NCBI GenBank assembly: GCA_900554635.1
Contig: USHY01000001.1
Location: 18,728 to 82,727, forward strand
Direction of reading: 5' to 3'
Length of the DNA: 64,000 nucleotides
From: an uncultured Clostridium sp.
GTDB taxonomy: Bacteria; Bacillota; Clostridia; TANB77; CAG-508
Shown here: positions 63,262-64,000 of the stretch, piece after piece
Layout of the letters: the number at the start of each line of letters is the position of its first letter
Position numbering within the stretch: position 1 is the stretch's first letter
Notes under the pieces: generated by a model
What the model was told of the DNA's origin: nothing
The model's database searches: none
What the model saw: only the letters and a program-made list of their open reading frames with translations
Made by a program: the position numbers and the translations under genes

Positions 63262-64000
63262 GATTATAGTTCCATATTCTGATATGATATAATTTCAATA
63301 TCTGGAGGAATTGCTAGACAGTTGTTATAGTTTCATATTATATTTTGATATGATATAATAATGGAAAAATTAAGTAAAGAAGATTACAGAGTTATAGTTC
63401 CATATTATATTTTGATATGATATAATGAAAATGATTATTGTAAGATAAGAGATTTTGTTATAGTTCCATATTATATTTTGATATGATATAATTACAAAAA
63501 CATCTTGAATAAAACCATAACTGTTATAGTTCCATATTATATTTTGATATGATATAATGTTACTATGCAAGAAATCATGGAAAGGCAAGTTATAGTTCCA
63601 TATTATATTTTGATATGATATAATGATAGCAGACAAATCATGGTTTAGAATAAAGTTATAGTTCCATATTATATTTTGATATGATATAATCATTTTCTTT
63701 GTTAATATAAAACTCTTGATGTTATAGTTCCATATTATATTTTGATATGATATAATTTAAATTTATCATTTTAAACACCTCAAATATGTTATAGTTCCAT
63801 ATTATATTTTGATATGATATAATTTCTTAAAATAAACATTCTTTACACCTCCTGTTATAGTTCCATATTATATTTTGATATGATATAATGAAGTTGAAAA
63901 TTGGTTCAAAGATTATAATGTTATAGTTCCATATTATATTTTGATATGATATAATATTTAGATTCACAAGATAATCAAAAATCTAGTTATAGTTCCATAT
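63262..64000 (+). CRISPR. CRISPR array, type II-C-like (array continues past window end)
   Basis: Repeat GTTATAGTTCCATATTATATTTTGATATGATATAAT (36 nt). 10 identical copies at 63391, 63457, 63523, 63589, 63655, 63721, 63788, 63854, 63920, 63986 (the last is cut at the window edge). Degenerate copies at 63324-63359 (1 mismatch) and 63262-63293 (indel). 11 unique spacers of 30-31 nt. Each repeat ends in extended -10 TGATATAAT. Confidence 0.9.

Follow-up and report, generated by a model that had tools for sequence, protein, structure and literature searches.

A type II-C CRISPR-Cas9 locus with candidate repeat-embedded promoters in an uncultured gut Clostridium

The DNA analyzed here is a 64,000-nt stretch (referred to below as the window) of contig USHY01000001.1 from an uncultured Clostridium sp. 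(assembly GCA_900554635.1, positions 18,728 to 82,727). Its right end, from position 63262 to the edge at 64000, is occupied on the plus strand by a CRISPR array. When the window was scanned for the 36-nt repeat GTTATAGTTCCATATTATATTTTGATATGATATAAT, 10 copies with at most one mismatch were found, all on the plus strand, and the number expected by chance was 0 according to 100 dinucleotide-preserving shuffles of the window. With the copies that such a scan misses, the window holds 12 repeats (one degenerate, one with a single mismatch, nine perfect and one cut by the edge) and 11 spacers, each of 30 or 31 nt, and Tandem Repeats Finder gave a period of 66. The degenerate copy, GATTATAGTTCCATATTCTGATATGATATAAT (63262-63293, plus strand), is referred to as the extra repeat; it would be the first one transcribed and the oldest. 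It is 4 nt short in its middle, with both the 5' part TTATAGTTCCATATT, predicted to pair with the trans-activating CRISPR RNA (tracrRNA), and the 3' part TGATATGATATAAT unbroken. It is followed on the same strand by a repeat with a single change, C10 to T (63324-63359), by the first perfect consensus repeat (63391-63426), by eight other perfect repeats starting at 63457, 63523, 63589, 63655, 63721, 63788, 63854 and 63920, and by the truncated copy at the window edge (63986-64000). The original prediction, made from the letters of the window, had described 36-nt repeats with 30- to 31-nt spacers and two degenerate copies, one with an indel and one with a mismatch. The scan and the shuffles bore out the former, and both degenerate copies were seen in the sequence. 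It had also held the repeat to be unlike those of type I-B, and indeed the type I-B repeat found at the same site in other strains of the species is GTTTAACTTCAACATAAGATGTATTTAAAT.

An extension beyond the right edge was sought in public assemblies with the help of the window's own proteins. A search with the SigH-like protein gave contigs with the same flank and different neighbors, while the exact DnaX protein led to a metagenome contig, L092. This contig was 100.000% identical to window positions 48985 to 64000 (15,016 nt, 0 mismatches), and it carried all the window spacers in the same order and then nine more. Because of this identity and this spacer order, L092 is the same genome as the window, read 6.5 kb further (window position = 70545 minus L092 position). 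According to L092, the array extends to a window-equivalent position of about 64618 and has 21 repeats and 20 spacers in total. A strong terminator (-21.7 kcal/mol), which is bidirectional, follows the array end. Next to it are, all on the minus strand and in window-equivalent positions, cas2 (64680-64976, with the stop codon about 680 nt past the window edge), cas1 (64993-65898) and cas9 (65917-69300), the last encoding a protein of 1,127 amino acids (aa). Past cas9, a non-coding stretch of about 310 nt leads to yefM-yoeB. The gene order is yefM-yoeB, cas9, cas1, cas2, array, sigH, and no other gene was called; the cassette between yoeB and sigH measures about 6.3 kb. The original prediction had placed cas9-cas1-cas2 just past the right edge of the window and had proposed to look for them by extending it rightwards, with an absence of cas9 as the outcome that would speak against it. 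All three genes, cas9 included, were found there.

The type of the system was then examined through its proteins. The Cas9 copy of strain contig L005 (1,127 aa) matched TIGR01865 at 812 bits, and the Cas9 of L092 was the same at 1,127 of the 1,128 translated positions. The L005 Cas1 matched the cas1_NMENI subtype model at 283 bits. Neither csn2, characteristic of type II-A, nor cas4, characteristic of type II-B, was found among the genes called at the cassette. The presence of cas9, cas1 and cas2 without csn2 or cas4 therefore makes this a type II-C system, as had been predicted, and by sequence every defining feature of this type that is open to an in silico check is present. The closest solved relatives of the Cas9 were Cas9 chains with E values of 9e-249 to 1e-162, of which the PDB table names only BlCas9. 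We take several of them to be of type II-C (Geobacillus, Neisseria and Brevibacillus types), and chains 8uza and 8uzb (E of about 1e-219) are presumably Geobacillus-type Cas9. The nearest solved chain, 21dz, is a different Cas9 of 1,154 aa. Among sequence records, Cas9 proteins with 85% identity were present in those of uncultured Clostridium sp. and of Clostridiales metagenome-assembled genomes (MAGs), and exact scans of the Joint Genome Institute metagenome contigs for two window spacers gave no match. As a separate observation, Cas9 homologues with 45 to 47% identity occurred in other uncultured Clostridium MAGs (L016, L017 and L018, match from 6001 to about 9150). No CRISPR array was found in the 6-kb flanks of these cas9 genes, which were of no use for a repeat comparison, and in L016, the only one of the three with open reading frames (ORFs) listed, no cas1- or cas2-sized ORF followed cas9. 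They may be stand-alone cas9 genes.

The targets of the spacers were searched for in viral sequences. Scans of IMG/VR with two IUPAC spacer patterns gave 73 viral contigs, and a third scan gave 5 more; all spacers of the window, of L092 and of the relatives were then compared with the contigs found. Protospacers in these viral contigs were obtained for 14 spacers, in line with the check that the original prediction had suggested. In the window plus orientation, the 3' flank of the protospacers was NNNNCAAA, with C5 in 11/14, A6 in 11/14, A7 in 14/14 and A8 in 12/14, the C content of the viral background being 14%; the 5' flank was unconserved. On these grounds, NNNNCAAA is a candidate protospacer-adjacent motif (PAM) in silico, and Cas9 would recognize protospacers bearing it on their 3' side. 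In type II systems, the PAM lies 3' of the protospacer on the strand with the sense of the CRISPR RNA (crRNA). Since NNNNCAAA was found only in the plus orientation and on the 3' side, the crRNAs correspond to the plus strand of the window and are convergent with the cas operon. Two other searches were negative: 50 spacers compared with 50,697 GenBank phage records (BLAST, distant mode, E up to 1) gave no match, and neither did an IMG/VR scan with the spacer AAGAAATGTACGCGGAGCATAAACAGAATT.

One spacer, CATTTTCTTTGTTAATATAAAACTCTTGAT (63691-63720, plus strand), accounted for 69 matches in IMG/VR viral contigs (L023 to L091). Its perfect protospacers carried TATTTAAA (53) or TATTTAAG (2), with a T at PAM position 5, and the one-mismatch variants, which have G at spacer position 17, mostly kept C5, as in TATTCAAA (8/11). 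This pattern looks like PAM or seed escape by phages and argues for interference in nature. Separately, spacers in the type I-B array (L001, 8250-8273) and the type I-C-like array (L006, 7314-7343) of other strains overlapped the targets of type II-C spacers, namely, the one at 63691-63720 and the newest spacer of L005. Because of this overlap, the different CRISPR types of the species have evidently sampled the same phage regions. We also observed that the first 20 nt of the L005 spacer AAAGAAGTATAAATAAAATACCATTTTGTT (8911-8940) exactly match the host at L005 2469-2488, in the 3' end of a ylmH-like gene about 6 kb off, either as a partial self-match or by chance in AT-rich DNA.

The polarity of spacer acquisition could be read from strain comparison. 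The window (with L092), L005 and L007 all share the DNA preceding the array (the trailer, see below), both degenerate repeats and the first two spacers on the sigH side. L005 and L007 have nine further spacers in common (11 in total) and then diverge on the cas2 side. As the shared spacers are on the sigH side and the strain-specific ones on the cas2 side, the sigH side is the old end of the array, which agrees with what the degenerate repeats had first suggested. New spacers would thus enter at the last repeat, proximal to cas2.

The tracrRNA had been predicted to lie past the right edge of the window together with the cas genes. An anti-repeat scan identified ATTATATCATATCAAAGTAGAATAGGTTACTATAAT, 70 nt upstream of the cas9 start codon and on the cas9 strand. 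Upstream of this anti-repeat is a promoter candidate (TTGACA, 17 nt, TGaTATTAT); downstream are AAGAC, which is nexus-like, a short hairpin and a 10-bp terminal hairpin, followed directly by the ribosome-binding site of cas9. The predicted tracrRNA region covers L092 1078-1244, equivalent to window 69301-69467 on the minus strand. In nine loci, with Cas9 identities of 67 to 100%, the same unit is kept upstream of cas9. Between two clades, the repeat and the anti-repeat co-vary (A4 to G with U to C, and G7 to A with C to U), and three more pairs co-vary in the terminal hairpin, making five compensatory pairs in total. These changes are effectively single events between two clades, so that the co-variation is supportive rather than statistical. 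For the duplex of the repeat with the tracrRNA, the prediction gives an energy of -47.5 kcal/mol, with repeat nt 9-12 forming the usual internal loop. A tracrRNA produced immediately upstream of cas9 would accordingly pair, through its anti-repeat, with the 5' part of each repeat. No Rfam match was found in the tracrRNA region or in the trailer. We noticed in addition that only about 25 nt separate the tracrRNA's 3' hairpin from the cas9 start codon, with a weak U-tract and no space for a second promoter. As a promoter for cas9 alone could hardly be fitted in, the gene may share a transcript with the tracrRNA or be expressed by read-through from the tracrRNA promoter. Another candidate, in which 63262-63293 served as the anti-repeat of a minus-strand tracrRNA, was rejected: the conserved and co-varying tracrRNA with promoter, AAGAC and 3' hairpin sits upstream of cas9, and the absence of any terminator on the minus strand at 63130-63300 also counts against it.

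All complete repeats of the array, both degenerate copies included, end in TGATATAAT at the 3' side. The last 11 nt of all 11 complete repeats in the window are TATGATATAAT, which has the form TRTGnTATAAT, the Gram-positive form of the extended -10 element; an example is found at 63416-63426 on the plus strand, for which a promoter function is suggested by Neisseria, Campylobacter and Clostridium cellulolyticum. A perfect extended -10 (TG-n-TATAAT) at the end of each repeat, reading into the adjacent spacer, had been claimed from the start. All 11 complete copies do end in this way and, the crRNA strand being the plus strand as judged from the 3' PAM, the element points into the next spacer. 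In the 63 kb outside the array, TGNTATAAT is present just 15 times with both strands counted, which amounts to about 1.2e-4 per position and strand. This rarity indicates that its exact placement at the repeat 3' end is not an effect of base composition. While the 5' half of the repeat changes among relatives, its 3' 18 nt (ATTTTGATATGATATAAT) stay the same down to 67% Cas9 identity, and TATGATATAAT itself is unchanged in relatives whose Cas9 is 67 to 85% identical. The sequences upstream of the relatives' arrays are unrelated across four genomic contexts; there is therefore no common leader promoter. On the other side of the array, the terminator described above separates it from cas2.

Such an arrangement has been described in three type II-C systems. 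In Neisseria, the repeats carry embedded promoters with starts at the sixth nucleotide of the spacer (PMC12477760, PMC5965381), and in Campylobacter each repeat has its own promoter, as in Neisseria (PMC5965381, PMC12080349). In C. cellulolyticum H10, a terminal 9-nt extended -10, an array antisense to the cas genes, an upstream tracrRNA and guides of 23 to 26 nt were reported (PMC7038990). By analogy, the last 11 nt of each repeat here (TATGATATAAT) would act as an extended -10 promoter, and transcription would start about 6 to 8 nt into the following spacer, giving crRNAs with guides of about 23 to 24 nt. The 5' ends of these crRNAs would be independent of RNase III cleavage, and tracrRNA-directed cutting by RNase III would at most trim their 3' side. 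The placement of the locus in this repeat-promoter, RNase III-independent class is inferred from the motif and from the analogy with the N. meningitidis, C. jejuni and C. cellulolyticum systems; it is also supported by the unchanging 3' half of the repeat, by the unrelated flanks in relatives and by the terminator toward the cas operon.

What precedes the array bears on this interpretation. The similarity to type I-B strains and to strains without cas genes ends at 63069 (type I-C-like strains diverge earlier, at about 62915), so that the trailer, 63070-63261, belongs to the type II-C cassette. It contains a near-consensus sigma-A-type promoter on the plus strand (63122-63150), composed of TTGACA (63122-63127), a 17-nt spacing and TGTGcTATACT, and matching 11 of the 12 hexamer positions plus the TG. 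Transcripts from it are predicted to begin exactly with a terminator-like hairpin (63158-63193, -12.4 kcal/mol), at its first base, and the hairpin is followed by U6 (the whole covering 63158-63199). On the crRNA strand, the hairpin with its U6 precedes the extra repeat by 62 nt and is a candidate insulator against transcription entering the array; in the closest relatives, L009 and L010, the array is likewise preceded, at a distance of about 80 nt, by a hairpin with T6. In a survey of type II-C systems, acquisition takes place at the last repeat, the extra repeat is mutated, mostly within the first 15 nt, and terminators lie upstream (PMC12080349). A hairpin with U6 and a mutated extra repeat would be features of the kind proposed to limit extraneous crRNA, and the trailer hairpin and the extra repeat here match two of the three devices reported against it (PMC12080349). 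A promoter firing straight into a hairpin, as predicted at 63122-63199, does not fit neatly into this published picture. We also considered whether the promoter region (63115-63150) was itself a decayed repeat, since 14 of 17 positions match in the 3' half and, if one indel is allowed, about 25 of 35 in all. This was dropped and is not claimed, because its local-alignment score of 30/72 equals that of chance matches inside cas9.

Several observations weigh against repeat-embedded promoters as the source of the crRNAs. The -35 available to each of them is weak (TTCCAT or TCCATA, 2 to 3 of 6 positions), and the repeat also has a plain TATAAT when read in antisense. Its 3' half forms a perfect duplex with the tracrRNA as well (16 bp), so the conservation of this half does not single out a promoter function, and it probably has a role in integration too. 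The near-consensus external promoter at 63122-63150 is upstream and on the same strand as the crRNAs, and if the trailer hairpin were leaky, a long precursor crRNA (pre-crRNA) could also be made from it. "Leader-independent", as the original prediction had it, therefore does not appear clean in this strain, with a near-consensus promoter 111 nt upstream on the same strand and a terminator-like hairpin directly after it. Moreover, the extra repeat keeps the 16 nt predicted to pair with the lower stem of the tracrRNA, and its cofold with the tracrRNA reaches -42.3 kcal/mol versus -47.5 for the consensus repeat. Because the pairing part is kept, a mutation that disables the extraneous crRNA is not evident here. 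With these points taken into account, we still consider it likely that an active type II-C CRISPR-Cas9 locus with repeat-embedded promoters has its oldest, cas-distal end here, in an uncultured, low-G+C, spore-forming, Clostridium-like gut bacterium. Read rightwards, the cassette consists of the trailer with its hairpin, the extra repeat, 20 spacers and another 20 repeats, the bidirectional terminator, cas2, cas1, cas9 and the tracrRNA.

The external promoter, as the strongest promoter match of the region on the crRNA strand, could be given a larger role. One long pre-crRNA would then start from 63122-63150 and be matured in the type II-A manner, with the tracrRNA and RNase III, and TGnTATAAT would arise as a by-product in a repeat that is AT-rich and has to pair with the tracrRNA. 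The full complementarity between the 3' half of the repeat and the anti-repeat would account for its conservation, and the intact tracrRNA-pairing part of the extra repeat fits as well. However, transcripts from this promoter are predicted to begin at the first base of the -12.4 kcal/mol hairpin with its U6, and relatives with the same repeat 3' half have unrelated flanks and no equivalent promoter. A by-product would also have to yield a complete TRTGnTATAAT at the exact end of the repeat, a motif that is rare elsewhere in the window, and experiments in three type II-C systems favor internal promoters (PMC5965381, PMC7038990, PMC12477760). We regard this explanation as unlikely.

A still less probable possibility is that 63122-63293 is a dedicated small-RNA gene, with a strong promoter, a leaky hairpin and the tracrRNA-pairing extra repeat, whose product would carry a fixed, non-spacer guide and act with Cas9 and the tracrRNA in host regulation. 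Such a gene would be of interest as a regulator of the kind of a small CRISPR-associated RNA (scaRNA), or of a natural extraneous crRNA, in a Firmicute type II-C system, and small CRISPR-associated RNAs with a link to type II loci have been described (PMC13431127; PMC12477760, discussion). A near-consensus promoter inside a cassette-specific trailer and the intact lower-stem pairing region of the extra repeat would suit it, and transcription past the hairpin would produce a loadable RNA with 63238-63261 as its guide. Yet the hairpin and U6 stand between the promoter and the extra repeat, and no PAM-flanked target was found, in the window or in L005, for this guide (the 24 nt upstream of the extra repeat). 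Rfam gives no match, and all copies of the trailer are identical, leaving no variation for a comparative test and hence no comparative support. We regard a host function for this stretch as very improbable. The best match of the guide was a 13-nt seed, TTATGGTGCATAC, at 19711-19723 of the window (plus strand) within a 113-aa ORF, with CCAAAGCT as its flank; lacking the NNNNCAAA flank, it is probably due to chance.

A last alternative would see in the array a relic, orphaned or decayed and lacking functional cas genes, a member of some other CRISPR type, or a source of minus-strand crRNAs. It could be imagined from orphan type I-B repeats without cas at the same site in L004, L008 and L098 and from a window that ends inside the array, but it is already refuted by the intact cas9, cas1, cas2 and tracrRNA of the identical contig L092, by the perfect spacer matches in viral contigs with their PAM-escape pattern and, for minus-strand crRNAs, by where the PAM lies, by the tracrRNA promoter and by the terminator that separates cas2 from the array.

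The locus with its candidate repeat-embedded promoters was compared with known systems. With N. meningitidis it shares the order cas9-cas1-cas2, 36-nt repeats, 30-nt spacers, an array convergent with the cas genes, an extended -10 at the repeat 3' end, cas-proximal acquisition and a PAM with an N4 gap (PMC5965381, PMC12477760). The repeat termini are also alike (GTTGTA...TCC... / ...TG.TA.AAT), the first 24 nt of the Neisseria repeat having been confirmed in PMC12477760. The two differ in the -10, which is TATAAT with TRTG here and TACAAT in Neisseria, in the tracrRNA, predicted here directly upstream of cas9 with a gap of about 25 nt, and in the host, a Firmicute; the starts here are predicted only. 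The Neisseria PAM is NNNNGATT, whereas the candidate here is NNNNCAAA. Geobacillus-type Cas9s (GeoCas9 and ThermoCas9) have the PAMs NNNNCRAA and NNNNCNAA, both of which take in NNNNCAAA; papers on thermostable Cas9 cite NNNNCAAA as well. They differ from the present system, whose host is a mesophilic gut organism, and as proteins they are clearly separate orthologues.

Of the described systems, that of C. cellulolyticum H10 comes nearest in lifestyle and layout; it too is in a clostridial host, with 36-nt repeats whose last 9 nt match an extended -10, an array opposite to the cas genes and a tracrRNA upstream of them (PMC7038990). CcCas9 has 1,021 aa and the PAM NNNNGNA, and the C. cellulolyticum spacers were without database matches (PMC7038990); the Cas9 described here has 1,127 aa and the in silico PAM NNNNCAAA, and 14 spacers match viral contigs. 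C. jejuni and the other systems of the type II-C survey have in common with this locus the repeat promoters, predicted ones in our case, the entry of new spacers at the last repeat, an extra repeat that is mutated and a Rho-independent terminator upstream, again predicted in our case (PMC12080349). Unlike in that survey, the extra-repeat mutation here spares the first 16 nt, the tracrRNA-pairing part, and the terminator comes directly after a near-consensus promoter of its own, a combination not described in PMC12080349. The architecture is otherwise that of a textbook type II-C locus and adds no new principle (PMC12080349, PMC7038990, PMC5965381, PMC12477760), and the trailer promoter with the extra repeat is the sole part with any claim to novelty. 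The locus offers a clean and fully annotated example in which the cassette, the crRNA strand, the tracrRNA, the candidate PAM NNNNCAAA and the acquisition polarity were obtained from sequence alone, and the data suffice for designing a single-guide RNA and a PAM assay for the Cas9 of an uncultured gut Clostridium.

On the sigH side, the insertion site is flanked by the gene for a SigH-like sigma factor of 218 aa (62106-62762, minus strand; NCBIfam NF006148, 224 bits versus a cut-off of 208). Between this gene and the cassette is an intrinsic terminator on the minus strand, GGAGTAGGTTAATAAAAACCTGCTCT with a T-run (62991-63016, mapped from L005 9747-9772). It lies in the flank common to type II-C, type I-B and cas-less strains, type I-C-like strains aligning only up to about 62915. 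The yoeB-sigH site (window 62763-63069 and beyond) proved to be a hot spot for CRISPR cassettes within one species, the flanks being about 98 to 99% identical among strains and SigH identical (L001 to L008, L092 to L101). Type II-C cassettes occupy it in L005, L007, L092 and L097, type I-B cassettes in L001, L002, L093, L094, L096 and L100, and type I-C-like cassettes in L003, L006, L095 and L099; L004, L008 and L098 have no cas genes there, their site holding a 157-aa ORF along with a few orphan repeats of type I-B. Three of these observations may appeal to CRISPR ecologists: the variety of cassettes, or the lack of one, at a single chromosomal site within one species, the overlap in phage targets between different systems, and the PAM-escape pattern seen for one spacer. 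Further left, a small signal recognition particle RNA (60578-60673, minus strand) and a transfer RNA (61961-62034, minus strand) are located among dnaX, a tadA-like deaminase gene and sigH, an ordinary housekeeping context.

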